This document shows, piece by piece, positions 4,746 to 36,925 of a stretch of DNA of 64,000 bases. The position numbers and the translations under genes are program-made. Source of the stretch: a bacterium (GTDB taxonomy: Bacteria > Patescibacteriota > Patescibacteriia > Patescibacteriales > UBA12465). Positions within the stretch are counted from its first letter, which is position 1. Each line of letters begins with the position of its first letter. The stretch covers positions 1,854 to 65,853 of the forward strand of contig DAONDZ010000002.1 in assembly GCA_035402825.1 (NCBI GenBank). The letters are read 5' to 3'. The notes below the pieces were generated by a model that saw only the letters and a list, made by a program, of their open reading frames with translations, searched no databases and was not told the origin of the DNA.

Positions 4746-4773
4746 TTAAAAAACCCCGGATTAATTCCGGGGA
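4746..4773 (-). terminator. Rho-independent terminator of the 4782-5819 gene
   Basis: On the minus strand: CCCCGGAattaaTCCGGGGtttttt, a 7-bp stem plus T-run, immediately 3' of the stop at 4782. Confidence 0.55.
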
Positions 4774-4781
4774 TAAAATCT

Positions 4782-5819
4782 TTAGTTTATTGGCAATACA
4801 AGACGAATATCACAGCCCCATTTTATATCGGAGTCAAAATCATAAACAATAAATCTGGGGGAGTCGGTATTAACCAAAACCGCAATTAGCTCTTCTGTGA
4901 GCTTGTCTTTACTAAGCGGTTTATGCTCATCTCTCTTGGCTAAAAAAAGGGTGCCAAATGATTCAAACCCTTCTCCTTCCCTGAGCCAGTTGGGAAATTC
5001 CTGACAAAATTCTATTATCTGGTCTTGGGAAAAAATCTTTTTCTCCCAAGGACCCGGAGCGAAGGAAAATAGTTCTCTTATTTTGCCAGCAAGAATAGGT
5101 TCGTATACTTTCGCTCCAACCTCCGGAGTAGCCGCGCCCAATGGATTAATTTTTACTTGCTTGAGGTCAATATTAAAATATTTAAAGACCCCATTCGTTC
5201 CATTAAGTCTGCGTTTCCCGTCCAGCGATTTAATGGTTAGTGTTTCACCCTTAGAAATAAGCCGTAAAGAACCTACAACCTCGTGTTGTTTCGACAAGGG
5301 ACAAATTATGTCAAAAGTTCCAAAGGTTTTAGGGGAAAGACCGCCAAAAAAATCGCCAAAATCAAGAAATCGAAAACCAACACTCAACCCCTCACTTAAA
5401 TCATTTTTATCCAAATGATTAAATACTGACACCACCACCAAATTATCTTCTGGTTTATGCTCGTCAATTGGTCTATTTTCATCTTTTTTTATCAGAAAAA
5501 AACTAGTGTTGTGACAATTCATTTTTGTCCGATGTTGGCATAATTCTACTACTTGATCCTGGGACAGCCATTTTTGATTCCAGGTACCAGGCAATGAATC
5601 AAAAAACTTTCTGCTAGTCGCATCTCCAAAGGTCCTATAGACAATCACTTCGGCCTCTGAAGTGGCTACACCTGGCTTATTAATACCGTAGTGGTTAAAC
5701 CAAGAGTCAATACCGATATCAAAGACTTCTGGAGATTGACAAATGAGACGTTGGCCGGATAAGGCCTTAATTTTTATTGGTTTCCCAATTGCTCGTAAAT
5801 AGTCGTTTTTATATTTCAT
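4782..5819 (-). CDS. Hypothetical protein made of two tandem copies of a ~165-aa domain
   Basis: The two halves align. Examples: IKIKALSGQRL / LTIKSLDGKRRL; PGTWNQKWLSQDQVVELCQH / PGPWEKKIFSQDQIIEFCQE; FFLIKKDENRPIDEHKP / LFLAKRDEHKPLSKDK. No known family recognised. Confidence 0.5.
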   Translation of the reverse strand: MKYKNDYLRAIGKPIKIKALSGQRLICQSPEVFDIGIDSWFNHYGINKPGVATSEAEVIVYRTFGDATSRKFFDSLPGTWNQKWLSQDQVVELCQHRTKMNCHNTSFFLIKKDENRPIDEHKPEDNLVVVSVFNHLDKNDLSEGLSVGFRFLDFGDFFGGLSPKTFGTFDIICPLSKQHEVVGSLRLISKGETLTIKSLDGKRRLNGTNGVFKYFNIDLKQVKINPLGAATPEVGAKVYEPILAGKIRELFSFAPGPWEKKIFSQDQIIEFCQEFPNWLREGEGFESFGTLFLAKRDEHKPLSKDKLTEELIAVLVNTDSPRFIVYDFDSDIKWGCDIRLVLPIN

Positions 5820-20698: not shown

Positions 20699-20727
20699 AT
20701 TATAACATAATTAGGATACATTGACAA
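20699..20727 (-). promoter_or_regulatory. Promoter (TTGTCA-17 nt-TATAAT) of the ferredoxin/156-aa/ATPase operon
   Basis: The minus strand has TTGTCA at 20727-20722 and TATAAT at 20704-20699. Its -35 overlaps the -35 of the divergent rpmA promoter. Confidence 0.5.
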
Positions 20728-20749
20728 AGAATGGGCTCTTTGCTATATT
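20721..20749 (+). promoter_or_regulatory. Promoter (TTGACA-17 nt-TATATT) of rpmA
   Basis: TTGACA at 20721-20726 and TATATT at 20744-20749. The leader is ~45 nt without a clear SD. Confidence 0.5.
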
Positions 20750-20799
20750 ATTGGAGCCTTTACAAAAACATTTTATTATTTTAATTGCTTTAAAACTAT

Positions 20800-21087
20800 A
20801 TGTCGCATAAGAAAGCGGCTGGTACTACAGCCCTGGGACGAGATTCCCAAAGTAAACGTCTCGGCGTTAAGCTATCTGATGGCCAATATGCCAAAATCGG
20901 TTCCATTATTATCCGCCAACGCGGTACTAAATATCATGTCGGCGCTAATGTAAAACGCGGTAATGATGACACTTTATTCGCTGTTAAGACCGGTTTAGTC
21001 AAATTCACCACCAAGAAAATGAAGAAATTTGATAACACCTTAAAAACCGTTAAAGTTGTTTCCGTCCTACCGGTAGCCGCTAAATAA
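20800..21087 (+). CDS. rpmA: 50S ribosomal protein L27
   Basis: [24 protein letters not shown]...[18 protein letters not shown] is a canonical L27 sequence. It is monocistronic here, with no adjacent rplU. Confidence 0.9.
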
Positions 21088-21100
21088 AAATCAAACAAAA

Positions 21101-21133
21101 AAAAAGACCGTTTTAACCAGCGGTCTTTTTGTT
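21101..21133 (+). terminator. Rho-independent terminator of rpmA
   Basis: aaAAAGACCGttttaaccagCGGTCTTTttg: 8-bp stem plus T-run. Confidence 0.65.
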
Positions 21134-21152
21134 TAACTACTTTGGAAATTAT

Positions 21153-21183
21153 AAAAGCCTTCCGTTGCGGGAAGGCTTTTTTT
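21153..21183. terminator. Second hairpin terminator; on the minus strand it ends the 21203-22093 gene
   Basis: aAAAGCCTTCCgttgcgGGAAGGCTTTtttt: 10-bp stem, T-run on plus, and ttttat after the stem on minus. Confidence 0.6.
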
Positions 21184-21202
21184 CTTAGTTCTTTCGAAAC
21201 GC

Positions 21203-22093
21203 TTACCTTAAGCCGTAGAAGAGGGCCATCGGATTAATTTTGATTCCGATCTCGTTAGCGCCAATTCCGTCGCCCATGGAAGTGCGGGTGTAATAAATAT
21301 CCATGGCGTGGCCGATAAACTTATAAGAATTGAGAGAGATGCCGCCGGTAAATTTCCAGGCGTTAAATGATCCAAAAGGAGTCATATTGGTATATGAAAT
21401 ACCAGCATCAAATCCGATTCCTACTTTATTTCTCTTGCAGCTGATGCCGAAAACTTCGGCACTGTACCCGGCATCGAAGAAAAAAGTTTTCACATCTTCA
21501 TTGTCAAGCGGGGACTTAATGATCTTTTCGCCGAAGGTGGTCTTCATGCTTTCGGAAAATGCGTACGCTCCGAAGAAATGAAGTTCCTGTTCCCGGAAGG
21601 CTTTCACCGTTCCGTTCTTTACACCTTCTGAGGTGATGCCCACTCTTTCGGAAAATATTACCGAATGGGTCACCGCCTCTTTGCGCCAGGTCGTAGCGGT
21701 ACCGTCGTCGTTAATAAATTGGTAGTGGTTAGCTTTAATGAAATATTCGTACCCAACGAATATTTCATTATACACGGATTCATAATAACCCGTTCCACTT
21801 CCCAACCAGCCAAACTGGGTGTTGCCGATCATGCCGCGAATTTTCATACGGTCGCCGGCAGCGGTATCAAGGACGTTGGTTACGTAATTGCACCCGATTA
21901 TAAAATCGATGTACTTGGTCCGGAAGGCCAGGTCAACGATGAATTCGTTGCCTTCACCTAACGTAGCGGTATCCTTCATCATTTTAGTTGATGTGGCGCC
22001 AAGCGCCAGATCAATTGGAGTCGGCCTCTGCTGGGCCATGGCGGTGATAGAAATTATCATCACTGCAAACATTAAAAACATTTTTGCTTTCAT
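21203..22093 (-). CDS. Secreted beta-strand-rich protein, possibly beta-barrel-like; monocistronic
   Basis: Signal peptide MKAKMFLMFAVMIISITAMAQQ. Alternating hydrophobic/polar, Gly/aromatic-rich sequence runs to the C-terminus (GIGFDAGISYTNM..., WKFTGGISLNSYKF..., IGIKINPMALFYGLR). It has its own promoter and terminator. Confidence 0.5.
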   Translation of the reverse strand: MKAKMFLMFAVMIISITAMAQQRPTPIDLALGATSTKMMKDTATLGEGNEFIVDLAFRTKYIDFIIGCNYVTNVLDTAAGDRMKIRGMIGNTQFGWLGSGTGYYESVYNEIFVGYEYFIKANHYQFINDDGTATTWRKEAVTHSVIFSERVGITSEGVKNGTVKAFREQELHFFGAYAFSESMKTTFGEKIIKSPLDNEDVKTFFFDAGYSAEVFGISCKRNKVGIGFDAGISYTNMTPFGSFNAWKFTGGISLNSYKFIGHAMDIYYTRTSMGDGIGANEIGIKINPMALFYGLR

Positions 22094-22125
22094 GATTATG
22101 TGTATTTATAAGGTTCATACTATAG

Positions 22126-22173
22126 TTTAACTACCTCCTAAATTCCCTGGCAGAAGCTTAGGAGGTAGTTAAA
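22126..22173. repeat. Perfect 16-bp inverted repeat with a 16-nt loop, inside the predicted 5' UTR of the 21203-22093 gene
   Basis: TTTAACTACCTCCTAA (22126-22141) ... TTAGGAGGTAGTTAAA (22158-22173). The arms contain CCTCC/GGAGG. Confidence 0.85.
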
Positions 22174-22227
22174 TTAATACCCAAAATACAAAAATCAAAA
22201 AGCGGGGTAAAAGAACAATAACTGTAT

Positions 22228-22256
22228 ATAATAGCACAAATAATTACAAGTGTCAA
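22228..22256 (-). promoter_or_regulatory. Promoter (TTGACA-17 nt-TATTAT) of the beta-rich protein gene
   Basis: The minus strand has TTGACA at 22256-22251 and TATTAT at 22233-22228. This predicts a ~125-nt 5' UTR that contains the 16-bp hairpin. Confidence 0.45.
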
Positions 22257-22316
22257 TACTTTCCCCAAAATACACAAAAACCCCGGATTTACGAGGTTTT
22301 TGCTTATTTTTGAGTA

Positions 22317-23102
22317 TTATTTCAAGATATTACGGATATTCCCCTGCCCTTCAATATCAAAGTTTTCATCATTCTCGGAGATATCATCTTCTTCGTAACC
22401 GCCTTCACGGCCAGCTTGATTTTGTTGTGGCAAAAAATTAGTTTCCAAATTTCTAGCCTGACGCTTCTTCCCTTTTCTTCGGAAAAGATTCATATCATAT
22501 TTTTCTTCTGGGAAAAGGTAGATATAGATGAAACCGATAGCTAGGCCAAGAACCAAGGATAGCCCGAAGTTAATCGGCAAATTAGGTTGGGTGGGATAGC
22601 GGGAAACCAAGGGCTCGTCCACCACCGTTACCTTCACTGAGCTGCCGATTCCCTGATAGACAGAGTTCTGAGTCATCAAGACATTGTTAACCGCTAAAGC
22701 GATTTGCTTGGCTTGATAGCTACTCGGATGATAAATAGTGATATTAATGAAACCGGAATCAGCCATTCCCCTAGCACTAACAGTATTCTGCCAGGTTTTT
22801 AATTGCTTAATGGAGTCGCCCTGAAAATAGGAGCGATCAATATTAAAGCCGGAATCTAGAACCATATTATAGAAGGAGTTGGAATAAGTCACTTCTGATA
22901 ATAGGCTGCTTAAATACTCCACAGAGCGGGAAACAGCAAAAGGATCCACCCCACTAGCGCCTTCTTGAATAACCAACAGTCGAGACTTAGCCCCATACTT
23001 AAAAGTCTGGGAGAAAGTAACTAGACCGCCGATCAACAAGAAGATCAAGATCCAAGTGATCAGGGTGCCTTTTTTTCTTTTAAATAATTGTTGAAATTCC
23101 AT
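22317..23102 (-). CDS. Wzz/polysaccharide co-polymerase-like chain-length determinant
   Basis: The topology is TM1 near the N-terminus (TLITWILIFLLIGGLVTF), a soluble middle, then TM2 (FGLSLVLGLAIGFIYIYLF) and a short acidic cytoplasmic tail. The gene sits in a glycan-locus context. Confidence 0.5.
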   Translation of the reverse strand: MEFQQLFKRKKGTLITWILIFLLIGGLVTFSQTFKYGAKSRLLVIQEGASGVDPFAVSRSVEYLSSLLSEVTYSNSFYNMVLDSGFNIDRSYFQGDSIKQLKTWQNTVSARGMADSGFINITIYHPSSYQAKQIALAVNNVLMTQNSVYQGIGSSVKVTVVDEPLVSRYPTQPNLPINFGLSLVLGLAIGFIYIYLFPEEKYDMNLFRRKGKKRQARNLETNFLPQQNQAGREGGYEEDDISENDENFDIEGQGNIRNILK

Positions 23103-23214
23103 ATAAGTAGCCGACGCGGTTGATTCCTATCAGAGAAACCAACCGCCTCGATGGTTATAATATAATTAGAGGCTAACCATATTATAACACATTATTTATA
23201 TTTTAGTAATCAGT

Positions 23215-24573
23215 TTAATTAGTGGTAGTAATCTCAAAAGCGGTGCTATAAGTCAGCTTGGACTTCTCGCCCACCACTTTGATATCCACTCTTTCGTGAG
23301 CCACTGCTACGCTAGGATTGCTGGCTTGGCTCTGAGCGATAGAAACTGCATTAGTCCAGGCTTCGGTAGAAACACCCGGGACAGTTATCTCCTGCTTAAA
23401 GCGACCATTGGCGTCAGCATTAATAGTATAGGTAGCGCTCTGGCCGAAAAGCACAGTCAATTTTTCATTCGGCAAGTAACCGCCGCCGGATAACAAGATC
23501 TCGGCATTGGTCGGCGCAGCCACAGTGTTAACGCGTAAATATAAGTTTTCCTTAACATCTACTCGGGTATCCTCCTGGCCCCGGAAAGAGGCTAGCTTGC
23601 GCAAGCTGCTGTCCAAGACTAAAACGGAAGAGTTATTGAATACTACTAATTTTTCACCGCTAGAGGTGGTCACGGCTTTCATGCCCATGGCCCAACCCTC
23701 GGTACCAGCAATACCACCGGTCTTTTGAGAAGACACTAGCTTCATGCCGTTCTTGTTTAGCTTTACTACGCCTAAACCATTGGAGAAATAAAGATAATCG
23801 TTGCCGGTAGAAACAGCGTCGTAACCCGGGTTGCCAGAATGTTCAAAGCGGCCCAAGATCGCTCCAGAATTGAAGTCAATCTTCTTGGCGCTTAAATCAT
23901 CAACTACATAGACAGCTTCATCTAAAGCGTCAAAATATAAGTTGCGATTACCATTACCGCTGCGGTAGTTAACCTGCAAGCTTCTGACTACGGAACGAGT
24001 AGTGCGGTCAAAAACTTCAATTTCGGTATTCTTGATATTGAAGATATAGCGACCGGTATCATTAGAACGAATGTTATAAGGCACGGAGTTGGTAATATCA
24101 TAAGAATCGATTACATCCATATTCTGGTTGTAGATTTTCACGCCCCGAGCTGAGATGGTGACGATATTATCGCCGAATTTATCCACCCGGTTATACCATT
24201 CCCAATAGGTGTTGGTCATCTTCTTGGTCAAATCAGCCGAATTAAGGCTGGTGATATCATATTTATACAAGGAGAAACCGGAAATAGCATAAGCATATAA
24301 GCGGCCATTTTCCTCGCTCAATTTGACATCATAGAAGTTGTCATCTTTGTTAAATCGGGCGTCAAAAGGTCTGACATCCACGAATCTAACTAATTGATCG
24401 CCTTCCAACTTGAAAATTTCCAAGCGATCGCTATTGGCGGTAGCGGTCACGACTACATCGCGATAAGCGATGGCGTCGCCGGAATAATAAGCCCGGACCT
24501 TAGAATCGCCCGGTAAAGCGGCGGCTCCTAAGCCCAAAACGCTAACTAGAAACACTAATAAAGCTTTTTTCAT
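23215..24573 (-). CDS. Secreted protein, probable beta-propeller with C-terminal Ig-like domain
   Basis: Signal peptide MKKALLVFLVSVLGLGAAA, repeated beta-strand blades, and a C-terminal ~80 aa (LSGGGYLPNEKLTVLFGQSATYTINADANGRFKQEITVPG) that looks Ig/CarboxypepD_reg-like. Confidence 0.45.
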   Translation of the reverse strand: MKKALLVFLVSVLGLGAAALPGDSKVRAYYSGDAIAYRDVVVTATANSDRLEIFKLEGDQLVRFVDVRPFDARFNKDDNFYDVKLSEENGRLYAYAISGFSLYKYDITSLNSADLTKKMTNTYWEWYNRVDKFGDNIVTISARGVKIYNQNMDVIDSYDITNSVPYNIRSNDTGRYIFNIKNTEIEVFDRTTRSVVRSLQVNYRSGNGNRNLYFDALDEAVYVVDDLSAKKIDFNSGAILGRFEHSGNPGYDAVSTGNDYLYFSNGLGVVKLNKNGMKLVSSQKTGGIAGTEGWAMGMKAVTTSSGEKLVVFNNSSVLVLDSSLRKLASFRGQEDTRVDVKENLYLRVNTVAAPTNAEILLSGGGYLPNEKLTVLFGQSATYTINADANGRFKQEITVPGVSTEAWTNAVSIAQSQASNPSVAVAHERVDIKVVGEKSKLTYSTAFEITTTN

Positions 24574-24723
24574 ATTTTTTAGAAAAAATTTATGTATTTA
24601 TTTAATATATCAAAACATTATACTTTAACACATTTTTTTACGAATGTCAATAATATATCATATAAAAAGAAAACTGTCAATAGAAAAAGACATCAAACAA
24701 AAAAGGCTCATTTAAGGCCTTTT

Positions 24724-26349
24724 TTAGTAGCGACCGACGATAATCTCAGTAATTTCGTCTTTATTTAAATCTTCGCTTAATAGATCTAATTTACCGCTTT
24801 TCCCTAAATTTTCCACAGAGAAACTGGCTAAGAGCTTGGCTCTGAGGCTAAAAATCTTTAGTTTATCCTGTCCCCCAGCTGGCAAAGTAGCGATTTCCAG
24901 CTGGCCATCGCCATTATAATCCCCTAAAGACACCAAAACCGCGGCGGTTTTTAGTCGGGGATAAGGATTAAATGCCCCTACCAGCTTCTGATTATAATAT
25001 ATCCACACCCCCGGGCGGCTATAAGCTCCTGAGCCCTTTATCCCCACCCCATTGATTAAATTAGTTCTAGCCCCCTTTTGTACCTTGCTACTGACTAATT
25101 GAGTGGCCACGGTTTTCCCGGATAAATCATAGCCGCTATAAGTGCCACCTGAAAATAAAGACGATTGAAGAGAACGCACTCTTTCCAGGAGCCAACCGCT
25201 GCGGGCAGGCACGGAAATGCTTTTCGTTTTAGCTTTTTTCCCCACTAAGCGATATTCTGTTTCCAAATTAATAGTCGTTTCTTGAGCTTGAGGATTTAAA
25301 ATGGCTAGGCCATTTCTAAACTCCCGGCGATAATACTTGGCGCCGGTTTCATCAAATAATTCCTGAGCTGCGCCTAAGGGTTCGCCTAAATTAAAATCGT
25401 ATTCTTTAAACCACCAAGATTGACCGTGGTCGGAAATATTGCGGTCAAAGCTGAAATAAATGTTATCAAACAAAACCGAGCTGGAGAGTCCGTAAAGACG
25501 CCGAGAAAAATTGTCGCTCTCGTTGTTGGTTAGATTAAAAACATAAATTTGCGGAGACAAGTTAACCGCTTGAATTTTCTGATAGCTGGAAATATTATCT
25601 TCCCAGGTACCCCGTCCTTCATAAACGCTGGGAAAATCTTCAAACAAACGGCCGTTTAAATATTGGTGATACGGCAGATAGGAACTGCTGTTAGCCAATA
25701 AAATATATTTTGAGCCGACTCTATCACGAGTAGCTGACAAAATATTCTCCACACCTTCTTGCCAGGCTCTATTTAACTCCGCAGTTCCCTCCCGACGGCC
25801 ATCGCCGTTTATATCTACATCGCCGCCATTTAGCCAGGCAACATCTTCCCAGAGATTATCAAAAAAGATTCCATCCCAGAGACCGGAAGACAGAATTTCT
25901 TCGTCTATAAAGCGGGGCAAGTAATCATCAAAACCACTATTGGCCACGTTAATCATCCAGGTGTCCGGCCAAAAACTGATTTTTTTGCCGGCTTCATCGC
26001 GCAGATACCAAGAATCCGGCAGAGCAGCAAACATTTTTTGCCGCAGGGGGATATTATATAAGGCGGTATCGTTTCTAATTTCCTGGGAGCTGATATAGGC
26101 CAGAATAATGATATCGGGATGGAGCTCTTTAATCTTTTTCAATCTTTGCGGATTAACCGCCTGATTTTCCATGTCTAATATTAGAACGTCAAACTTAGCC
26201 AATCCCGCCACCTCAGCATCGGTTATTTGCCAACGCAAAAAAGCATTGGCGGTTTTAGGATTAGCCTGGCCAATGCTCGCGGCTGAAGCGAAACTAGCTC
26301 CGCCCAGAAGGCTTAGAGCTAAAAATAAAATTATGATTTTTTGGCGCAT
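24724..26349 (-). CDS. Secreted putative glycoside hydrolase (GHL15/GH114-like) with a short FG-GAP C-terminus; paralog of 11414-13432
   Basis: Signal peptide present. NPKTANAFLRWQITDAEVAGLAKFDVLILDME...HPDIIILAYIS...LWDGIFFDNLW aligns closely with the 678-aa protein. C-terminal motifs GDYNGDGQLE and EDLNKDEITE are present. Confidence 0.6.
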   Translation of the reverse strand: MRQKIIILFLALSLLGGASFASAASIGQANPKTANAFLRWQITDAEVAGLAKFDVLILDMENQAVNPQRLKKIKELHPDIIILAYISSQEIRNDTALYNIPLRQKMFAALPDSWYLRDEAGKKISFWPDTWMINVANSGFDDYLPRFIDEEILSSGLWDGIFFDNLWEDVAWLNGGDVDINGDGRREGTAELNRAWQEGVENILSATRDRVGSKYILLANSSSYLPYHQYLNGRLFEDFPSVYEGRGTWEDNISSYQKIQAVNLSPQIYVFNLTNNESDNFSRRLYGLSSSVLFDNIYFSFDRNISDHGQSWWFKEYDFNLGEPLGAAQELFDETGAKYYRREFRNGLAILNPQAQETTINLETEYRLVGKKAKTKSISVPARSGWLLERVRSLQSSLFSGGTYSGYDLSGKTVATQLVSSKVQKGARTNLINGVGIKGSGAYSRPGVWIYYNQKLVGAFNPYPRLKTAAVLVSLGDYNGDGQLEIATLPAGGQDKLKIFSLRAKLLASFSVENLGKSGKLDLLSEDLNKDEITEIIVGRY

Positions 26350-27560
26350 ACTTCTTTAAATATTTCCAAAAGTCCGCGGTAATGGTGTGGCAAAGTCAAA
26401 TCAAAAACTAATTGCTTGGCTTTCTGTCCCATGAAATCTAGTTTGATCTTATCCAGACTATCAATTTTAGCTGCCAAGTCAAGACTATCGCCGCGGGTGA
26501 ACAAGAATCCGGAAATACCCGGTTTAATCAATTCTCCTAATCCGCCGGTTTGAGAAGCGATAACTACTTTGCCTAGAGCCAAGGATTCCAACAAACTAAA
26601 AGGCATATTTTCCAGCCACAGAGACGGAATAACTATAGCTTTAGCTCGAGCAATTAAAGGCTTTAAATCCTTTTGACTTAAATTTCCCAAAAATTTCACC
26701 CGGCTAGATAATCCTAATTCTTCTGTCAGTTTCTTCAAATTAGCCTCCGCCGGCCCACTGCCAGCAATTCGCAAAGGTAAATCGGTTTTAGTGTGAACCA
26801 AGGAGCGAAGCAAGACATCGATTCCCTTTTCCGGAGATAAGCGGCCAAAATATAGCAGATAATTTTCGCCCAGCTCCGGCAGCTCTTTAGCGATGGGAGT
26901 GTCAATGAAATTGTAGAGTAGTTTAATTTTCTCCGCCGGGACGCCGAAAGAAACGCAGGTATCTTTCATGAATCGGCTGGGAGCGATATAGGCGGCAATA
27001 TTCTTTTCGTAGATCTGCCAAATTTTGTGGTGAAGATACATTTCGGTCATTACCAAAGAACTCATGGCTAGAGAGTTTTTAAAACAACAATGAGTCACCG
27101 CGTTATAGTACTTCCCGCCCCGACAGCGATAGCAGATTTCGTTATGAGTAAAAAGCTGATAGTTGGGGCAAATCAGTTTGTAGTCATGCAAATGCATCAC
27201 CACCGGAATATTATATTTCTTGGCCACATCCAAAATGGAAGGCGATATCTGATGATAGATATTATGAATATGAATAATTTCTGGTTGAAAATCTTTTACT
27301 AATTTTTCAAATTTTTGCTTAGCTTCCCGGCTATAAATTATCCGCCCCGGAGCTATCAATTTGTCGCGTAAGCCTCCCTCGTTAAAACTGATCCGGGAAA
27401 CAAAATATTTCTCTTGCGGGCTAGGCAAATTCTTGGGGTGCTGCATGGAAAAAACTGCCACCTGGTGACCTTGTTTTTTGAGGTATTCGGTAATGTCTAA
27501 AAAATATTTCTCCGCCCCGCCTCGTAAATAATGGAACTTATTAACCTCTAAGATGCGCAT
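26331..27560 (-). CDS. Glycosyltransferase family 4 (GT-B)
   Basis: N-terminal GGAEKY and C-terminal PSLWLENMPFSLLESLALGKVVIASQTGGLGELI (the EX7E region). Confidence 0.8.
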   Translation of the reverse strand: MRILEVNKFHYLRGGAEKYFLDITEYLKKQGHQVAVFSMQHPKNLPSPQEKYFVSRISFNEGGLRDKLIAPGRIIYSREAKQKFEKLVKDFQPEIIHIHNIYHQISPSILDVAKKYNIPVVMHLHDYKLICPNYQLFTHNEICYRCRGGKYYNAVTHCCFKNSLAMSSLVMTEMYLHHKIWQIYEKNIAAYIAPSRFMKDTCVSFGVPAEKIKLLYNFIDTPIAKELPELGENYLLYFGRLSPEKGIDVLLRSLVHTKTDLPLRIAGSGPAEANLKKLTEELGLSSRVKFLGNLSQKDLKPLIARAKAIVIPSLWLENMPFSLLESLALGKVVIASQTGGLGELIKPGISGFLFTRGDSLDLAAKIDSLDKIKLDFMGQKAKQLVFDLTLPHHYRGLLEIFKEVCAKKS

Positions 27561-27562
27561 AA

Positions 27563-28651
27563 TTAATGGATTAAATCATAATAGAGCAGCTCATATTCAG
27601 CCGCTACTTTCCTGATATCAAAACGCTCCCTAATGTCTGATTGTAATTTCTCACCTAGAGCTCTGAACTGCGGCGAATCAACCTGAGACAAGGCATACTC
27701 AATCTTCTCAGCCATATCGCCAATCTCTTGGGGGTCAAACAAAATACCGGTCTCTCCGTCTTTAATCACTTCCTTAATCCCATCCACGCGGGAAGCTAAA
27801 ACCGGCAAGCCCTTGAGACCGGCCTCCAAAAGCACTATCCCCAACCCTTCCCACAAAGACGGCAGAATGAAGAAATCCAATTGACTCAAAAATCCGCTAA
27901 CATCTTTTTGTAACCCGACTAATTTTATCTTCTCACCCAAATTAAAATCTTTAATTTGTTTTTCTAAAACCGGCCGCAGGTCGCCGCTACCGGCAATCAG
28001 GCACAAAAAATTGCGATCTTTAAATAAAGACAAAGCCTCAATTAAAGAACCGAAATTTTTCTGGGTAGCTAACCGGCCGATGCTGCCGAAAATAACCGCT
28101 TCGCCGGGCTGGCGGTGATAAGCCTCGCCTTGAAACTTAGAAAGCTCTAATCCGTTATAGATCACCCGCACTTTTTCCTCAGGAACTTGATAGCGCTTAA
28201 TTAAATCTTTTTTCACCGCTTCCGATATCGCCACGATATATTTAGCAAAATGTCCGGTCCAAGATTTCAAAAAATTATAGCTGCCGCCTTCTTGCAAATT
28301 AACATTCTGTTCGGTGGAAATTATCCCCTTCACTTTTAACATTCGCGCCGCCAAACGGCCATAGACATCGCCGCCTAATTGGGTGTGCACTATGTCCGGC
28401 CGCAATTTTTTCATTTTGAACAGTAGTGCTAAAAAATTAAAGGGATCTAGCCGCCATCTTTTTTTGAGAGCATAAACCGGAATTTCCAAAGCCAGGGCTT
28501 CTTCCCAGAAAAAACCGGCATGATCAAACAAGATAAGCGAAGGAGAAAACTTAGCTTTATCCAAATTTTTTATTAAATCCAAAATAAAGCGCTCGGCACC
28601 GCCAGCCTCTAAAGAAGGAATGACATAAGTAATTTTTATCTTCTCGGCCAT
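27563..28651 (-). CDS. Glycosyltransferase family 4 (GT-B)
   Basis: YVIPSLEAGGAERF and PSLWEGLGIVLLEAGLKGLPVLASRVDGIKEVI. The track start at 28666 is a GTG. The ATG at 28651 (MAEKIKITYVIPS) removes the overlap with the upstream gene. Confidence 0.8.
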   Translation of the reverse strand: MAEKIKITYVIPSLEAGGAERFILDLIKNLDKAKFSPSLILFDHAGFFWEEALALEIPVYALKKRWRLDPFNFLALLFKMKKLRPDIVHTQLGGDVYGRLAARMLKVKGIISTEQNVNLQEGGSYNFLKSWTGHFAKYIVAISEAVKKDLIKRYQVPEEKVRVIYNGLELSKFQGEAYHRQPGEAVIFGSIGRLATQKNFGSLIEALSLFKDRNFLCLIAGSGDLRPVLEKQIKDFNLGEKIKLVGLQKDVSGFLSQLDFFILPSLWEGLGIVLLEAGLKGLPVLASRVDGIKEVIKDGETGILFDPQEIGDMAEKIEYALSQVDSPQFRALGEKLQSDIRERFDIRKVAAEYELLYYDLIH

Positions 28652-28652
28652 A

Positions 28653-30032
28653 TTATTTTTTTTCACGGCGACGATATTTTTCTGTCACTAAGGCCACGGC
28701 CACTAAAGCGATGGCCACGGGCACCCAGAGCTTGCCTTTGTAATAGGAAGTATTAAAAAATTGATAAGCAATACCGCCCAAGGCTCCGACACCCAAAGGC
28801 AGTAATAGCTCTTTTTCGGCCTGATATTTCTTCAGCGGCAATATTAATTGAGAAAAGATAGACCAAAGAAAAAAGACAAAAGCCAAAACCCCCACTGCCC
28901 CCATTTCTGCCAAAACCTTTTGCCCCACGCCATGAGAATCCAAGGGATCGCCGTATTTAGCTCCGAAACGAACATTATCTTCCACCAAATTCACAAACAT
29001 GCCCGGACCATAACCAAAGACCGGATGAACGGTAAAAGCGGTATAAGCTATCTGAGTGAGTAACCAACGATTTTCCGTAGAGCTGGTGTTGCTTTCCTGT
29101 AATTGATCCATGCGCATAATAAAAGGAGTTAAGACCAAAAGACCAACCACAATCATCATAATAATCTGCTTAGAACTCCAAGCTCGGGCATGGATATAAA
29201 AATTATCCACCACAAAATACAAAGCTATTTCTAATCCCAAAACAATCCAAGCCGTTCGGGAGAAGGTGGCCACGGTCACTAGCAATAAGAAAATGAAAAG
29301 AATATCAAAGAATCTTCTGGTTCGCAGCGACTTATACCAATATTTCAAAGCCAAGACGAAGAAAGTGATAATCACCAAAAACTCCGCAATCAAATTATGA
29401 TTATAGCCCAATGGCCAGACTCCAAAGACGGCAATAGGCTGAACGCGGAAAAAAGCGTTATACCAATCCTGGTAATACAGCGAGGCTACGCCCATTAGCG
29501 CTATAGCCAAACCGGAAATAACCAGCATGATTATCGCTCGGCGCAAAATATCACCATTCTTGATAACGTTATAGGGAAAGAAAATATAGGCTAAATAGAA
29601 AAATAGCAACCAACGCAAGCTATACCAAAAAGAAAAAAGAATATAATCGCCCATTAAACTAGAAATCAGAGCGGCGGCCAAAAATAATAAAAACGGCAGA
29701 AGCAGCGGCCATTTAATTTGCGACCAGGGATTTTGTCCTCGAGCCCAGAAAAATAATTGCTGTAAAAAGAAGGCCAAGACCGCTAACACTCCTAGAGCTT
29801 CCGGTAGAGACAAGCTGAATCCCCCAGCCGTGAAGCTTAAATTGATTAGGGGCAAAGATAAAATTAAGACATATAAAGCTAGAATCGGTTGGATAGTAAA
29901 GACGCCTAAAATTAAGACTATTCCCCAAAAAATCAAAATCCAAGTTAAATACCAAGGCATTAATGCCAAAACCACTAAACTAGAAAAGAAAAAAATCGAA
30001 AAAAGCCCCAGCCACAATCGTTTGATCAGCAT
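28653..30032 (-). CDS. O-antigen ligase/Wzy-like polytopic membrane protein
   Basis: At least 10 predicted TM segments, a Wzy_C-like FSRTAWIVLGLEI region, and a large loop with YGPGMF. It sits in a locus of glycosyltransferases. Confidence 0.6.
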   Translation of the reverse strand: MLIKRLWLGLFSIFFFSSLVVLALMPWYLTWILIFWGIVLILGVFTIQPILALYVLILSLPLINLSFTAGGFSLSLPEALGVLAVLAFFLQQLFFWARGQNPWSQIKWPLLLPFLLFLAAALISSLMGDYILFSFWYSLRWLLFFYLAYIFFPYNVIKNGDILRRAIIMLVISGLAIALMGVASLYYQDWYNAFFRVQPIAVFGVWPLGYNHNLIAEFLVIITFFVLALKYWYKSLRTRRFFDILFIFLLLVTVATFSRTAWIVLGLEIALYFVVDNFYIHARAWSSKQIIMMIVVGLLVLTPFIMRMDQLQESNTSSTENRWLLTQIAYTAFTVHPVFGYGPGMFVNLVEDNVRFGAKYGDPLDSHGVGQKVLAEMGAVGVLAFVFFLWSIFSQLILPLKKYQAEKELLLPLGVGALGGIAYQFFNTSYYKGKLWVPVAIALVAVALVTEKYRRREKK

Positions 30033-30075
30033 AAGTTTAAAAAATAAATAACACTAATATTATAGCAAAAACCGG

Positions 30076-30113
30076 ATAAATAAAAAAGCCCGGCGCATGC
30101 ACCAAGCTTTTAT
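30076..30113 (-). terminator. Rho-independent terminator of the TPR gene
   Basis: Minus-strand RNA AAGCUUGGUGcaugCGCCGGGCUU followed by UUUUUAUUUAU. Confidence 0.55.
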
Positions 30114-30131
30114 TAAAGATGAGGTTTGACC

Positions 30132-30890
30132 TCACTTTAATTTCAATAATTTTTGGAGGATTTCTACCCCCTCCTTAGTCTTCCCTATTTGCACCAGGGA
30201 AATACCCAGAGTCTTCAGAAGAACCGGATCAGTTGCCTTGAGGTGATAGGCCGGCTTCAGAAAACTGACTACCTTGTCATATTTCCCCAGGTAATAATAG
30301 CTCATCCCAGCCGAAAAATAGATGTCGTAGCTGCGCTGAAAGCTGAGTAAGTTTTCAAAGCTAGTCGCCGCCTCGGCATACATCTCCAGTTGGTAGTAGC
30401 TCCTTCCCAGGTAATAGTAGCTCATAGTGTCCTGACGGAACTTTTGGGCGGCCAGCATGGCATCGACGACTTTCTGGGCGTTAAGAAACTGATCCAGCTT
30501 ATAATAGCAAACCCCCAGATGGAAGTTGTTGCTATAGCCCGGCTCAATTTTTACTGATTCCAAAAAACTATTGGCAGCATCAGTATAGCGACCGGAGTTA
30601 AATAAGCACATTCCTTTGAGCTCAGCCCCGGCGGCAGCTTGACCGCAGTTAATAGCTGAATCGGCAAAAACAGCAGCGGCACCATACTTTGCTTGGGCGA
30701 ACTTTTCTTTAGCCAAGCTGAGATATAATAATCCCATCTTAGCCTGATCGGCGCACCAGGATTTCTGATAATTTTCCTTCATGATTTTGATTTCGTTCTT
30801 CAACGAATCAACTTTGTTGGTCTTGCCCTTCTGAGCAAAAACGGCGGTGGAAACAACCGCCAAAACTAAAAACAGATACCATTTCTTCAT
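30132..30890 (-). CDS. Secreted TPR-repeat protein; monocistronic
   Basis: Signal peptide MKKWYLFLVLAVVSTAVFAQ and about 5-6 TPR-like units (e.g. YYYLGRSYYQLEMYAEAATSFENLL, GMSYYYLGKYDKVVSFLKPAY). Confidence 0.65.
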   Translation of the reverse strand: MKKWYLFLVLAVVSTAVFAQKGKTNKVDSLKNEIKIMKENYQKSWCADQAKMGLLYLSLAKEKFAQAKYGAAAVFADSAINCGQAAAGAELKGMCLFNSGRYTDAANSFLESVKIEPGYSNNFHLGVCYYKLDQFLNAQKVVDAMLAAQKFRQDTMSYYYLGRSYYQLEMYAEAATSFENLLSFQRSYDIYFSAGMSYYYLGKYDKVVSFLKPAYHLKATDPVLLKTLGISLVQIGKTKEGVEILQKLLKLK

Positions 30891-30980
30891 GATTCAAGGT
30901 ATTAAGGTTAAACATTTATTTTTAAAGGCCAAATAGTGCAATATATATAATTATCATTTATTTTGGTTGCTGTCAAGGCG

Positions 30981-31019
30981 AAAAATAACACAAAACCGCG
31001 GCTAAAATAAGCCGCGGTT
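30981..31019 (-). terminator. Rho-independent terminator of the DUF4012-like gene 31036-32967
   Basis: The minus strand reads AACCGCGGCttattttaGCCGCGGTTttgtgttattttt: 9-bp GC-rich stem plus a T-rich tail. Confidence 0.65.
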
Positions 31020-31035
31020 CTATATTTAAAGCAGT

Positions 31036-32967
31036 TTATTGTAATCCTACCTGTAAGCTCTGGTCAGCGGTTAAAGTCGATTCGGTTTCTAATTTTCCGC
31101 CACTGGAAACGTTAAGGGCGGCGCTCATTCCGGCGGCGCTATTAATCTCGGAAAGAAAATCCAAGCTCAAGTCTAAAGCCTTAGCTCGATTGCCCGCCTG
31201 TTTCTGAATTAGCAAATTATAATTCCCCTCTTTCACCTGGCTCCAAACTGAATCCGGTAATTTATATTCAAATTCCAAATAGCCTTCTTCGCCCGGTTCA
31301 ATGGACAAGAAAGAACCGAAATAAGTTTTAGCTTTAGTCTCATCATCAAAAGTATCATCCTTGACTTCTAAGCTGCCATCAACGTAACCGGCTGACTTAA
31401 TCAGTTTTGATCCTTGCGGCACATAGACTCTAGTGTAGCTGCGATAGCGGGTAGTCTTCCAATCAAATCCACCGCCATGGCGATAATCTATTCTGACTTT
31501 AGCATATAACCCATCATCCTTTTCGGACAAAGAATAGTCAATGGTTTTTTCCATAACTCGATCAGTCTTGAAGGCGGCCAAGTTGGCGTCCACCACCATT
31601 AGATAGTCATTGGGCGAAGCCTTCATTTCCCCGTTCCAACCTAAACTCTTGGCTATATTTTGGAGAGAGCGATCGTTGAAATAAACTAAAATGTTTTTTT
31701 GATAGATGTCGGAGTTCACCGTCTGCAGTAATTCGGCGTAACGGCTGGTGGGCAAATTAAACAAACGATCTTTGAGGACACTGAATATTTCGCCAATAAC
31801 TTTTTTTCTATCCCATTGCGATTCTCCGCGATCGCGATAAGCCATTTCCACTTCATATTGCAAGAGTTCTACAAAATTATCTTTAGTATATTCCTGGCCG
31901 CCCACAGTAATCGGACCGACTAGATATAATAAGTTGGTGACGAAAGTTGGAGTAATTGCTAAGACGCCATCAAAGTTAGGAGCGGGGTTAATCGTCGGAT
32001 CATTGCTATAAGGCGCCTCAGTTTTGTAAGCCCATTCAATCTGCTTGGCAGAAGTCGGCCAATCTGGAGACCAGTTGGAATCACGTAAATACCAATTGCT
32101 CACGCCTAAATATTTTTGAATCGGCCAAGGCGGCACCACTTTAAAATTAGGATTAATGGAGGCCGGCATATCTAAGTGATATGAATCATGGGTCTGAATA
32201 GTCACCACGCTGCCGTTTTTGACCTGCATCACTCCTAAGGTACCGATAAAGCCGCCGGTGGGACGCAATTCATCGCTATTTTGTAAAACTATTAAATAAT
32301 TGGAAGCTTGAGGGTAACCAGCTACTTGGGGCAAAATCTGGGAGAGGGTCAAAGCTTGGCTCAAAAGTTCCGAGCCTAAAATCAATTTATCCCGGACATC
32401 ATTAATCTGCCCTTTCAATACTCCTAAAAATCCTTGACCGGAAACTTGGCGCAAATCCATAGAAGCCAAATCAATGTCGGCTTTCAAGCCATTCAACTCC
32501 GGTCCGGATTCATAGAGCAAGCGCAAGATTTCTCTTTTTTTAGTTTCTGATAAATCATTAAAGCTCCGGCCTGGTTCATCAGCTATCGCGCCTTCTATTT
32601 TTTCAGCCACTAAGGAGCCGCGGGCAACGGAACGACTCAATACTTCAGCCGTCTTGAGTAGATATTCCCACTCCGCCAAAGTGTCCTGGGAATAATTAAA
32701 GCTCTGCCAGACTTTCTTAGCCCGCAAACTGCTTAAATATTCCGAACCGCTTTTAAAATTATTACTCGCCTTATCCGCCGATTCCGAAGCTGCGGCAAAA
32801 TCGCCGGATTGCAATTGAGCGGCCGCCGCTTCTAAATTGTTTTTCCCGGCCATCGCCGATTTATATAAATGCGGCGCGCCAAAAATCAAAGGCAAATTGA
32901 GAATCAAAACTATGCCAATGAATATCAACGCTGCTAACCCCAAATAACGTAAAATTTTTCCGATCAT
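31036..32967 (-). CDS. DUF4012-like membrane-anchored protein; paralog of 40014-42422
   Basis: N-terminal TM and a helical region, then conserved blocks: LRPTGGFIGTLGVMQVKNGSV, DWPTSAKQIEW, DGVLAITPTFVTNLL, YLMVVDANLAAFKTDRVM and RVYVPQGSKLI. Confidence 0.7.
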   Translation of the reverse strand: MIGKILRYLGLAALIFIGIVLILNLPLIFGAPHLYKSAMAGKNNLEAAAAQLQSGDFAAASESADKASNNFKSGSEYLSSLRAKKVWQSFNYSQDTLAEWEYLLKTAEVLSRSVARGSLVAEKIEGAIADEPGRSFNDLSETKKREILRLLYESGPELNGLKADIDLASMDLRQVSGQGFLGVLKGQINDVRDKLILGSELLSQALTLSQILPQVAGYPQASNYLIVLQNSDELRPTGGFIGTLGVMQVKNGSVVTIQTHDSYHLDMPASINPNFKVVPPWPIQKYLGVSNWYLRDSNWSPDWPTSAKQIEWAYKTEAPYSNDPTINPAPNFDGVLAITPTFVTNLLYLVGPITVGGQEYTKDNFVELLQYEVEMAYRDRGESQWDRKKVIGEIFSVLKDRLFNLPTSRYAELLQTVNSDIYQKNILVYFNDRSLQNIAKSLGWNGEMKASPNDYLMVVDANLAAFKTDRVMEKTIDYSLSEKDDGLYAKVRIDYRHGGGFDWKTTRYRSYTRVYVPQGSKLIKSAGYVDGSLEVKDDTFDDETKAKTYFGSFLSIEPGEEGYLEFEYKLPDSVWSQVKEGNYNLLIQKQAGNRAKALDLSLDFLSEINSAAGMSAALNVSSGGKLETESTLTADQSLQVGLQ

Positions 32968-36801: not shown

Positions 36802-36920
36802 ATGTATTTGTTAAATAATAAAAAACTGCGTATTTACCGCAGACAAAAATAACCAAGAATGGTTTTTACCTCGGCAAGTCTTATTTTTATGCTTGCGGTC
36901 TGCGGTAATATTAAGTTATA
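36802..36920 (-). promoter_or_regulatory. rplJ (L10) leader with a long-range helix and a mutually exclusive terminator hairpin (attenuator)
   Basis: In the minus-strand RNA, TTACCGCAGAC (36908-36898) pairs with GTCTGCGGTAA (36844-36834). Alternatively, CTGCG (36842-36838)-gtaaata-CGCAG (36830-36826) forms a hairpin followed by TTTTTTATTATT. Confidence 0.5.
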
Positions 36921-36925
36921 AATCA

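Follow-up and report, generated by a model that had tools for sequence, protein, structure and literature searches.

The subject of this work is a gene for a secreted protein of 296 residues in a Falkowbacteria-like member of the Patescibacteria, of whose DNA we analyzed one stretch of 64 kb, referred to as the window in the following. Together with its control elements, the gene forms one self-contained transcription unit on the minus strand (21153–22256), which comprises a promoter, a short 5' box, an RNA hairpin, the coding sequence and a terminator of its own. We call it the barrel gene, after the predicted fold of its product. It is a long-standing and fast-evolving resident of its locus in Falkowbacteria-like Patescibacteria, and the hairpin in its leader is a conserved RNA structure with compensatory changes. 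With moderate confidence, we take the barrel gene to encode a major envelope protein and its leader to stabilize the mRNA, to gate translation, or both.

An initial annotation of the window had offered two interpretations of the same unit, namely a horizontally acquired cassette flanked by a 10-bp direct repeat, or a unit under RNA-level control by its 5' hairpin. The first of these falls in the light of the data presented below, and the second is supported in outline. Likewise, the observations behind them are partly confirmed: the positions, the hairpin, the promoter and the signal peptide stand, whereas a third copy of the repeat and the significance of the repeat do not. All coordinates refer to the window, of which the section 20700–22700 was read directly and its open reading frames (ORFs) listed; loci of relatives are designated by L and their proteins by P, each followed by a number.

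Results

The transcription unit

According to the ORF list, the coding sequence of the 296-residue protein lies at 21203–22093 (minus strand), its residues 1–20 forming a signal peptide. It is preceded by a sigma-70-type promoter at 22228–22256 (minus), in which TTGACA (22256–22251) and TATTAT (22233–22228) are separated by a 17-nt spacer that ends in TGc. This promoter reaches a consensus score of 11/12, carries the TG before the -10 element that is typical of the extended -10 type, and leaves a 5' untranslated region (UTR) of about 125–130 nt, so that both the promoter and the ~125-nt 5' UTR of the initial annotation are borne out.

All further elements of the leader are likewise on the minus strand. 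The 5' box GTTCTTTTA (22208–22216) corresponds to about +5 to +14 of the mRNA and is single-stranded by prediction. It is followed by the anti-start segment GCUUUUUGAUU (22193–22203), which in the minimum-energy fold is the predicted partner of the start-codon region, and by the leader hairpin (22126–22173), whose 5' arm, loop and 3' arm in the mRNA are at 22173–22158, 22157–22142 and 22141–22126, respectively. The translation initiation region AAUCAUGAAAGC (22086–22097, with the AUG at 22093–22091) has no Shine-Dalgarno (SD) sequence nearby and is predicted to pair with 22193–22203. Downstream of the gene, the unit closes with an intrinsic terminator (21153–21180, minus), a GC-rich 11-bp hairpin between A/T runs that can work bidirectionally; an equivalent terminator is present 3' of the gene in L001 and L004.

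The spacers on the two sides of the gene measure 115 nt toward rpmA and 223 nt toward a Wzz-like gene. The former gene (20800–21087, plus; Ribosomal_L27, E = 2e-30) is followed by a terminator hairpin at 21097–21134 (plus; arms 21097–21110 and 21121–21134). The latter is located upstream of the barrel gene at 22317–23102 (minus) and has a weak match to PF02706 (E = 3e-5).

Residence at the locus

A neighboring ATPase gene was used to fetch 80 loci from species-representative genomes, which are titled 'Candidatus Falkowbacteria' or 'Patescibacteria group'. In 10 of the 80, the gap between the Wzz-like gene and rpmA measures 1.1–1.6 kb, and each of these slots contains one gene for a signal-peptide protein of 270–310 residues in the same orientation. 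In an eleventh locus (L007), the contig is cut just upstream of the slot gene, which adjoins rpmA. Twelve further sources of Falkowbacteria-like genomes, namely 11 assemblies and one short contig, show a positional ortholog between the Wzz-like gene and rpmA, with one copy per locus. For instance, L001, a 160-kb NCBI contig encoding P0003 (54% identical), shows the Wzz-like gene, the barrel gene, rpmA in the opposite orientation, a ferredoxin gene, a 155-residue ORF and the gene for a DUF8128/TraG-like ATPase; the gene of L003, whose protein is also 54% identical, again lies between the Wzz-like gene and rpmA. L004 (58% identical) is a 1.1-kb contig without flanking genes, which informs only on the repeat discussed below. 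In L013 (4903–5779), the ortholog is split into two overlapping ORFs of 154 and 173 residues, due to either a frameshift or pseudogene formation or an assembly error.

The proteins encoded in the slot form subgroups that are 20–40% identical and are joined by BLAST chains and by the query profile; in a local profile search, even such divergent members as those of L006 (E = 6e-12) and L016 (E = 1e-6) were linked. Their neighbors are far better conserved, with 75–90% identity in L001 as compared to 54% for the barrel protein, and with 52–77% identity in L006, where the barrel protein has no tblastn match at E 1e-5. The syntenic comparison that the initial annotation had called for therefore shows relatives that keep the gene in the same slot, and not an insertion. 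More distant members, P0005 (L087) and P0006 (L090), are found in other genomic contexts, from which it follows that the unit has moved over deep time, though not as a cassette.

The direct repeat and the cassette interpretation

The direct repeat GTTTAACTAC had been described as bracketing the gene and its terminator. An exact search confirms its positions: it occurs exactly twice in the window, at 21131–21140 and 22125–22134, both on the plus strand, with 0.08 occurrences expected for that particular word, and once in 1.1 Mb of related loci, namely in the hairpin arm of L005, whose contig is identical to the window. The upstream copy (22125–22134) is the outer end of one hairpin arm, and the downstream copy overlaps the T-rich arm of the rpmA terminator with its first 4 nt. 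A third, inverted copy had been assigned to 22164–22173, but only nine of its ten bases are there, as the partner of TTTAACTAC(C); position 22174 is T and not C, and no exact third copy exists on either strand. The relevant null expectation, moreover, is not the frequency of this particular word but that of any 10-mer shared between two AT-rich spacers. The two spacers shared an exact direct repeat of 10 nt or more in 204 of 2000 dinucleotide shuffles (~10%), or in 399 of 2000 when counting either orientation, and in 69 of 1252 sliding controls of real sequence (5.5%). Furthermore, the downstream copy is not present in the orthologous loci L001 and L004. Since the repeat is at chance level and its downstream copy is missing in orthologs, we regard the latter as a chance match outside the functional unit; the repeat is a coincidence and not evidence for an insertion.

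A single-gene cassette that was acquired horizontally, as an integron cassette, a transposon or another insertion, with the 10-mer as its target-site duplication and an attC-like hairpin, would account for the exactness and rarity of the bracketing 10-mer, for the outer 7-mers of the hairpin in the window, which match RYYYAAC/GTTRRRY, and for the codon usage of the barrel gene and its GC content at third codon positions (GC3), both of which are in the upper tail among the genes of the window. Yet such repeats are frequent in shuffles and controls, the downstream copy is missing in L001 and L004, and the same slot is held in genomes from 12 further sources across a protein divergence down to <20% identity. 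The hairpin sits between a promoter and a start codon and not 3' of a promoterless ORF, its stem is perfect, without extrahelical bases, and no second element of this kind exists in 64 kb. In L001, L008, L011 and L016, the 7-mers no longer fit, as the initial annotation, which had listed the match as a curiosity, had itself suspected. Finally, the GC content of the gene (0.45) equals that of its neighbors, and the asymmetry of G·U pairs described below implies that selection acts on the RNA and not on the DNA. Taken together, the cassette hypothesis is essentially excluded, which removes a tidy false lead: the gene is ancient at this locus.

More specific variants were considered as well. An attC site is rejected, given a perfect 16-bp stem that lies 5' of the ORF and downstream of its own promoter and 7-mers that fit in the window only. 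Integron cassettes resemble the unit in that a single ORF adjoins an imperfectly palindromic site, with outer 7-mers of the form RYYYAAC...GTTRRRY; here, however, a perfectly paired hairpin without a second copy in 64 kb stands 5' of the ORF, and the gene keeps to one locus throughout the clade. There is no cassette array, as one such element exists in 64 kb, although integrase genes were not searched for exhaustively. The unit contains neither a transposase gene nor terminal inverted repeats. A palindromic repeat of the repetitive extragenic (REP) or miniature transposable element (MITE) type is rejected in view of one copy in 64 kb and only orthologous positions in 1.1 Mb of related loci. 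A foreign composition is rejected, too, as the GC content is normal and the codon shift favors codons ending in C, as ribosomal proteins also do for Tyr, Ile and Phe.

A conserved RNA hairpin in the leader

Both direct reading and a repeat search confirm the perfect 16-bp inverted repeat with a 16-nt loop that had been annotated upstream of the gene: TTTAACTACCTCCTAA at 22126–22141 and its reverse complement at 22158–22173. It extends to 19 nt at 95%, and the loop adds about 4–5 further pairs. The leaders of the window, L001 and L004 can be aligned and are near-identical in the promoter and the early leader, with proteins that are only 54–58% identical. Folding of the 5' UTR, which had been suggested as a check, yields a stable, rod-like structure, with -43.3 kcal/mol for the window (z = -5.5) and -47.5 kcal/mol for L001 (z = -7.3).

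To evaluate covariation, we aligned the hairpins of six loci (window, L001, L004, L016, L006 and L087) and applied RNAalifold together with an explicit count of pairs. The alignment contains a helix of 22 bp, in which 94.7% of the cells are paired and 12 of the 22 pairs show compensatory double changes. The covariation score of 0.52 compares to 0.25 ± 0.04 in shuffles and is reached in none of 500; the signal is lost when the partner columns are shifted by 1–3. G·U pairs (19 cells) far outnumber C·A pairs (4 cells), which places the constraint on the mRNA strand. Accordingly, R1, a covariance model trained on the six sequences, scores them with 107–141 bits in the sense and 42–57 bits in the antisense direction, and it recovers leaders outside its training set in L007 (90 bits), L180 (85 bits), L177 (69 bits) and L086 (48 bits). 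Most subfamilies possess a long leader hairpin, which differs in sequence and measures 15–25 bp in L008, L010, L011, L062 and L076. None of the 4227 Rfam families matches the leader at its gathering threshold, and the best sub-threshold match in 22050–22300 has 20.9 bits as compared to a cut-off of 41 bits. The only match in the window that passes is the ribosomal protein L10 leader (RF00557) upstream of rplJ–rplL (36811–36923, minus), which at 45.1 bits is barely over its gathering score.

RNA-level control by the hairpin, as proposed in the initial annotation, is thus supported in outline by the compensatory changes and by the G·U bias on the mRNA strand, but not in the form of the SD/anti-SD idea attached to it. 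The pairing of CCUCCU with AGGAGG is real in the window, yet it is not conserved, and AGGAGG is 40 nt away from the AUG. Sequestration of an SD sequence and a STAB-SD-like stabilizer are rejected on this account, as the same positions read GGAGA in L001, GAUGG in L016, AAUGA in L006 and AAAGG in L007. Also rejected are an intrinsic terminator or attenuator, as no U-tract follows the 3' arm of the hairpin, and an upstream ORF from the AUG at 22118, which is in another reading frame, lies 15 nt from AGGAGG and is replaced by AUA in L001 and L004.

Two side observations concern the leaders of relatives. In L001 (5886–5894) and L004 (54–62), the 9-mer TTTAACTAC occurs within and just after the 5' box (GTTCTTTAACTAC); its core, TTAACTA, has its complement, TAGTTAA, in the 3' arm of the L001 and L004 hairpins, so that an alternative pairing is possible there, but not in the window. 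L087 contains a second, similar hairpin leader (ATTTATTGAATTATCT/AGATAGTTCAATAAAT; 763–888, minus) with its own promoter, upstream of a divergent ORF of 53 residues (616–777, minus) and back to back with the leader of the barrel homolog P0005.

The 5' box and the start-codon region

A promoter of the form TTGACA-17-TAnnAT precedes the gene in every subfamily and ortholog examined. In all subfamilies, even at <20% protein identity, it is followed after 5–12 nt, counted from the -10 element, by the 5' box, for which we derived the consensus GTTCTTTGA, i.e. GTTCTTT(G/T/A)A. The combination is specific: among 22 matches to promoter and box in 1.18 Mb of related DNA, 21 precede a member of the barrel gene family. 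The box follows none of the other 11 promoter-like sites of the window and is, for the window, therefore rejected as a general promoter feature. Presumably, UUCUUUGA is near-complementary to the universal '907' region of 16S rRNA, which may well be due to chance.

The anti-start segment would engage the start codon. In the window, the duplex of GCUUUUUGAUU and AAUCAUGAAAGC has -10.8 kcal/mol, as compared to -6.2 ± 2.0 kcal/mol in shuffles (p = 0.018). Anti-start boxes of the form UUUUCAUG or UUUCAU are found in L001, L004, L086 and L180, and the start-region duplex is better than shuffles in the window and in these four loci (p = 0.002–0.04). The mean pairing probability of positions -15 to +5 is 0.74 in the window and 0.61–0.82 overall, as compared to 0.50 ± 0.12 in 43 control genes. 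An SD sequence next to the AUG is absent in most members of the family. In L076 (~4770–4801), an AGGAGG precedes the AUG by ~25 nt and is separated from it by a small GC hairpin (CCCCUC aaaaa GGGG), an arrangement that resembles the split SD/AUG of the T4 gene 38 type, where a hairpin draws these two sites close to each other.

A wider class of leaders

A pattern scan of metagenomes for promoter and box returned at least 119 loci, many of which are surely chance matches. Among the distinct matches listed, an uninterrupted stem of at least 12 bp was found within 120 nt downstream in 36 of 100, as compared to 10 of 98 on the upstream side; raising the minimum length to 14 bp left 27 of 100 and 4 of 98 among the matches listed, respectively. 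Of 31 promoter-like sites in Patescibacteria loci that lack the box, just one has a stem of at least 14 bp. Across 49 leaders, the longer stem is on the sense strand in 37 and on the antisense strand in 7 (Wilcoxon p = 2e-6), and sense stems contain 100 G·U pairs, antisense stems 33.

The metagenome leaders (L092–L210) consist of TTGACA-17-TGcTAnnAT, GTTCTTTGA and an RNA hairpin of 12–27 bp, and they stand before unrelated genes; examples are L108 (2440–2566, minus), L206 (1757–1843, minus), L160 (241–355, minus), L125 and L111. The genes behind them encode a lipoprotein (L108), a 199-residue protein that is similar to outer-membrane proteins (OMPs) and ends in ..CYF (L206), a KH-domain protein and members of unknown families. 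At least two of these proteins have named cluster members, 'Patescibacteria group' and 'Candidatus Falkowbacteria'. The combination of box and hairpin thus looks like a wider, hitherto undescribed class of leaders that recurs before unrelated genes of Patescibacteria.

A secreted protein with a predicted barrel fold

The signal peptide, MKAKMFLMFAVMIISITAMA|QQ, has its cleavage site after residue 20 at A-M-A, a site of the A-x-A type; the translation thereby confirms the annotated AMAQQ end, and nearly all relatives retain the AQ motif. Composition and strand-face analysis also confirm the Gly/aromatic-rich alternating pattern reported initially: with 11.7% G, 8.4% F and 5.5% Y, the mature protein is rich in Gly, Thr and aromatic residues, and hydrophobic and polar faces alternate along its predicted strands.

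Close relatives are rare, as only three were found among 5.8 billion clustered proteins. Homolog searches gave 3, 4 and 13 relatives; 1.84 billion representatives, scanned in full with HMMER, yielded 5 matches, and a protein-based scan of metagenome contigs gave none. In Pfam, nothing was found for the query or for eight positional orthologs, and the match of P0004 to OMP_b-brl (E = 0.036) is under the cut-off; a profile search against the PDB returned no match at E <= 10. With about 20 sequences among the billions searched and no annotation in Pfam, the PDB or the source databases, the family is new.

An AlphaFold model based on three sequences had a predicted local distance difference test score (pLDDT) of 57, which rose to 76.3, with a predicted template modeling score (pTM) of 0.70, when 17 database proteins were used. 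The model comprises an N-terminal signal helix, about 12–14 long antiparallel strands in meander order and a short C-terminal helix. In a Foldseek search of the PDB, all of the top 50 matches were outer-membrane barrels of Gram-negative bacteria, the best being AaaA (E = 8.7e-7; query-normalized TM-score, TMq, 0.51); others include NalP, Hbp, AIDA-I, BrkA, EstA, CymA, FapF and, among porins for polysaccharides, PelB and BcsC. Likewise, the matches in BFVD were autotransporter and OMP barrels. The resemblance to outer-membrane β-barrels suggested by the initial annotation is hence borne out at the level of the predicted fold, and the 296-residue protein is predicted to form an outer-membrane-type β-barrel.

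The coding sequence itself contains a perfect inverted repeat (21736–21770), TAATGAAATATTCGT tgggt ACGAATATTTCATTA, with arms of 15 bp and a loop of 5 nt, which covers the conserved YNEIFVGYEYFIK motif. Perfect inverted repeats of this length or longer occur only three times in 64 kb, this one included. It is not palindromic in L001 and L004 and is thus lineage-specific.

Codon usage and genomic surroundings

With 0.55, the GC3 of the barrel gene is among the highest of 43 ORFs, and its codon-usage distance is also in the upper tail. The deviation consists in a shift toward codons that end in C, such as TAC for Tyr (0.53 vs 0.15 in the background), ATC for Ile (0.48 vs 0.27) and TTC for Phe (0.48 vs 0.34); AAC, GAC and ACC are favored over the background as well. 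As the TAC, ATC and TTC shifts are common to ribosomal proteins, this preference for C-ending codons points to high expression rather than to foreign origin, and the gene is probably strongly expressed. The comparison of composition and codon usage proposed in the initial annotation hence speaks against a foreign gene, with a GC content like that of the neighbors and a codon deviation that is the signature of high expression.

As to the surroundings, a surface-polysaccharide gene cluster (22317–32967, minus) ends at the barrel gene. It comprises the Wzz-like gene and genes for a 452-residue secreted protein without Pfam domains, a GHL15 protein, two GT4 glycosyltransferases, a Wzy_C polymerase/ligase, a TPR protein and a DUF4012 protein. 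The TPR gene (30132–30890) has a GC3 of 0.556 and deviates in codon usage as the barrel gene does. No tRNA genes are present within the 64-kb window.

Discussion

Several features of the unit together form the pattern typical of a gene for a major protein of the surface or envelope: its promoter, its monocistronic layout with a terminator, its codon bias, its structured leader, the signal peptide, fast evolution amid conserved neighbors and the location at a polysaccharide cluster. On the strength of this profile and of the modeled fold, the protein is probably surface-exposed or located in the envelope. We envisage that the near-consensus extended -10 promoter would drive an mRNA of ~1 kb, whose leader of ~127 nt would start with a conserved, single-stranded box (GUUCUUU-R-A) and then fold into a long rod with a 16–22-bp hairpin as its core. 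At the base of this rod, a 5' anti-AUG segment is predicted to pair with the start codon in the window and its closest relatives. The leader may then act post-transcriptionally, by shielding an abundant mRNA from decay, in analogy to the slpA and ompA leaders, and/or by occluding the SD-less initiation region and thus setting or gating the rate of translation. The 5' box would be a candidate site for a trans-acting factor common to other genes with the same type of leader.

Several observations weigh against parts of this picture. Strong expression is presumed from promoter, codon and architecture signals. The orthologs of L012, L014 and L090 have no hairpin and retain the 5' box on leaders of ~35 nt; as it is missing from some orthologs, the hairpin should be modulatory and not essential. 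The start-region duplex is not significant in L006, L007, L016, L087 and L177, and U-rich leaders opposite A-rich initiation regions give a high pairing background. Classical stabilizers of mRNA lie no more than a few nt from the 5' end; in this leader, at least 13 nt before the rod are predicted to be unpaired. As for the protein, the model is of moderate confidence (pLDDT 76), is based on 17 sequences only, and has TM-scores of at most 0.51 to known barrels. Its C-terminus, ..NPMALFYGLR, is a conserved family motif that is predicted to be helical and does not constitute a canonical β-signal with a terminal Phe; some relatives end in W (P0004, L011). Lastly, bacteria of the candidate phyla radiation (CPR) have been described as monoderm (PMC8871954), which makes a membrane barrel unexpected.

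Other mechanisms would start from the same leader. In one live, if unlikely, variant, the hairpin is an RNase III site, and removal of the rod top lets the base helix fall apart and frees the AUG, or else cleavage starts decay; the leaders of lambda N and T7 0.3 are cases of activation by RNase III cleavage, and pnp is one of autoregulation by decay. Such a site would be in line with stems that are (nearly) uninterrupted over 16–27 bp and loops that vary in sequence and length, i.e. with conservation of a helix and not of an aptamer, with a conserved G·U beside a 1x1 internal loop (columns 64/83, five of six sequences), and with a rod base that occludes the AUG in the closest relatives, but 16 bp is short for a classical substrate and orthologs without a hairpin exist. 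Equally live, and in our estimate just as improbable, is a regulated translational switch, in the form of an RNA thermometer or of anti-antisense activation as in rpoS/DsrA, with a putative small RNA or protein binding at the 5' box and invading the anti-AUG arm. The conserved, single-stranded box does adjoin the anti-AUG segment, its occurrence before unrelated genes with long leader hairpins suggests a regulon, and the pairing probability of the AUG is ~1.0 in five of seven close relatives. However, known thermometers are far less stable than the rod (-43 kcal/mol), even if only the 8–11-bp helix at its base would have to melt, and the match of the box to TTNTTT makes an action at the level of DNA or transcription possible.

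This latter option, in which the inverted repeat and the 5' box are DNA-level signals, namely the operator of a dimeric repressor or a promoter-proximal pause site of the NusG type, is a minor rival and very unlikely. TTNTTT is a NusG-type pause motif of B. subtilis, which TTCTTT in the box matches; the box, at about +1 to +14, overlaps the initially transcribed region, and the arm sequence is partly conserved (TTNARYTAYC). On the other hand, the arms change and yet stay complementary, and their spacing varies over ~16–35 nt, both of which are unusual for an operator. The distance from the -10 element to the box varies between 5 and 12 nt, and G·U pairs are tolerated on the sense strand only, as judged from the pair counts and stem lengths of the 49 leaders (100 vs 33 and 37 vs 7). 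We therefore retain the structured leader of an envelope protein gene, acting on the mRNA, as the preferred reading.

The barrel protein evolves faster than its neighbors, as would be expected of a surface protein that faces hosts or phages. Given that the envelope of CPR bacteria and their interface with the host are poorly understood, a probably abundant envelope protein offers a concrete target for their study. Likewise, the leader class is a candidate handle on post-transcriptional regulation in a group in which gene control is almost unknown.

With 12- to 16-stranded outer-membrane barrels of Gram-negative bacteria, such as AaaA, NalP, BrkA, EstA, CymA, FapF and PelB/BcsC/PgaA, the protein shares a Sec signal peptide, alternating strands rich in Gly and aromatic residues and a predicted all-next-neighbor meander; TMq values between autotransporter domains and the barrel model range from 0.39 to 0.51. 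By contrast, it has no sequence or Pfam similarity to them, lacks a passenger domain and ends in the helical ..FYGLR instead of a terminal Phe, and its host phylum is described as being without an outer membrane and without the barrel assembly machinery (BAM). For a barrel protein as the outer envelope layer of a lineage with an atypical envelope, there is a parallel in the β-barrel arrays of the Thermotogae toga (bioRxiv 10.1101/2022.09.22.508938). The toga is a precedent only, and Falkowbacteria are not known to have a layer of this kind. It is possible, although rather doubtful, that Falkowbacteria-like cells, thought to be monoderm, make, among their major products, a genuine transmembrane barrel of the OMP type, in the form of a lineage-specific, hypervariable family, and that in addition its expression belongs to a Patescibacteria-wide post-transcriptional regulon, which is defined by leaders composed of promoter, GUUCUUUGA box and long hairpin. 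If this were true, it would imply an unrecognized outer lipid layer, a toga-like layer or a pore array, or else a barrel that is inserted into the host membrane at the episymbiotic interface.

Regarding the leader, stem-loops in the 5' UTR of Escherichia coli ompA stabilize the mRNA, for which a hairpin position at the very 5' terminus is required. Here, too, a 5' UTR hairpin precedes the gene of a putative major β-barrel envelope protein and is proposed to have a role in mRNA longevity, although, apart from the position of the hairpin, the RNases of the host may differ. The 5' UTRs of the cspA family share a 'cold box', and the rpoS leader is opened by DsrA; these offer an analogy for a short conserved box near the 5' end that is common to several genes and is followed by a long leader governing access to the initiation region, without any similarity in sequence.

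A close parallel may be drawn to the S-layer genes of Lactobacillus, which combine a long 5' UTR that forms a stabilizing structure with biased codons and efficient promoters (PMC3666127), and whose products are likewise small, with 25–71 kDa (PMC3666127). Like slpA, the barrel gene is monocistronic, encodes a secreted, putative envelope protein, and has an efficient promoter, a 5' UTR of >100 nt with a stable hairpin and a codon bias. Unlike slpA, to which it bears no sequence relation, its leader features a 5' box and, in close relatives, pairing with the AUG, and its product is predicted to be a closed barrel and not a known S-layer fold. In kind, therefore, both components are already known, the structured leader of a gene for an abundant envelope protein as well as the OMP-like barrel; new, and not described in the libraries searched, are the protein family, the leader with its box and covarying hairpin, and their occurrence in a supposedly monoderm phylum.

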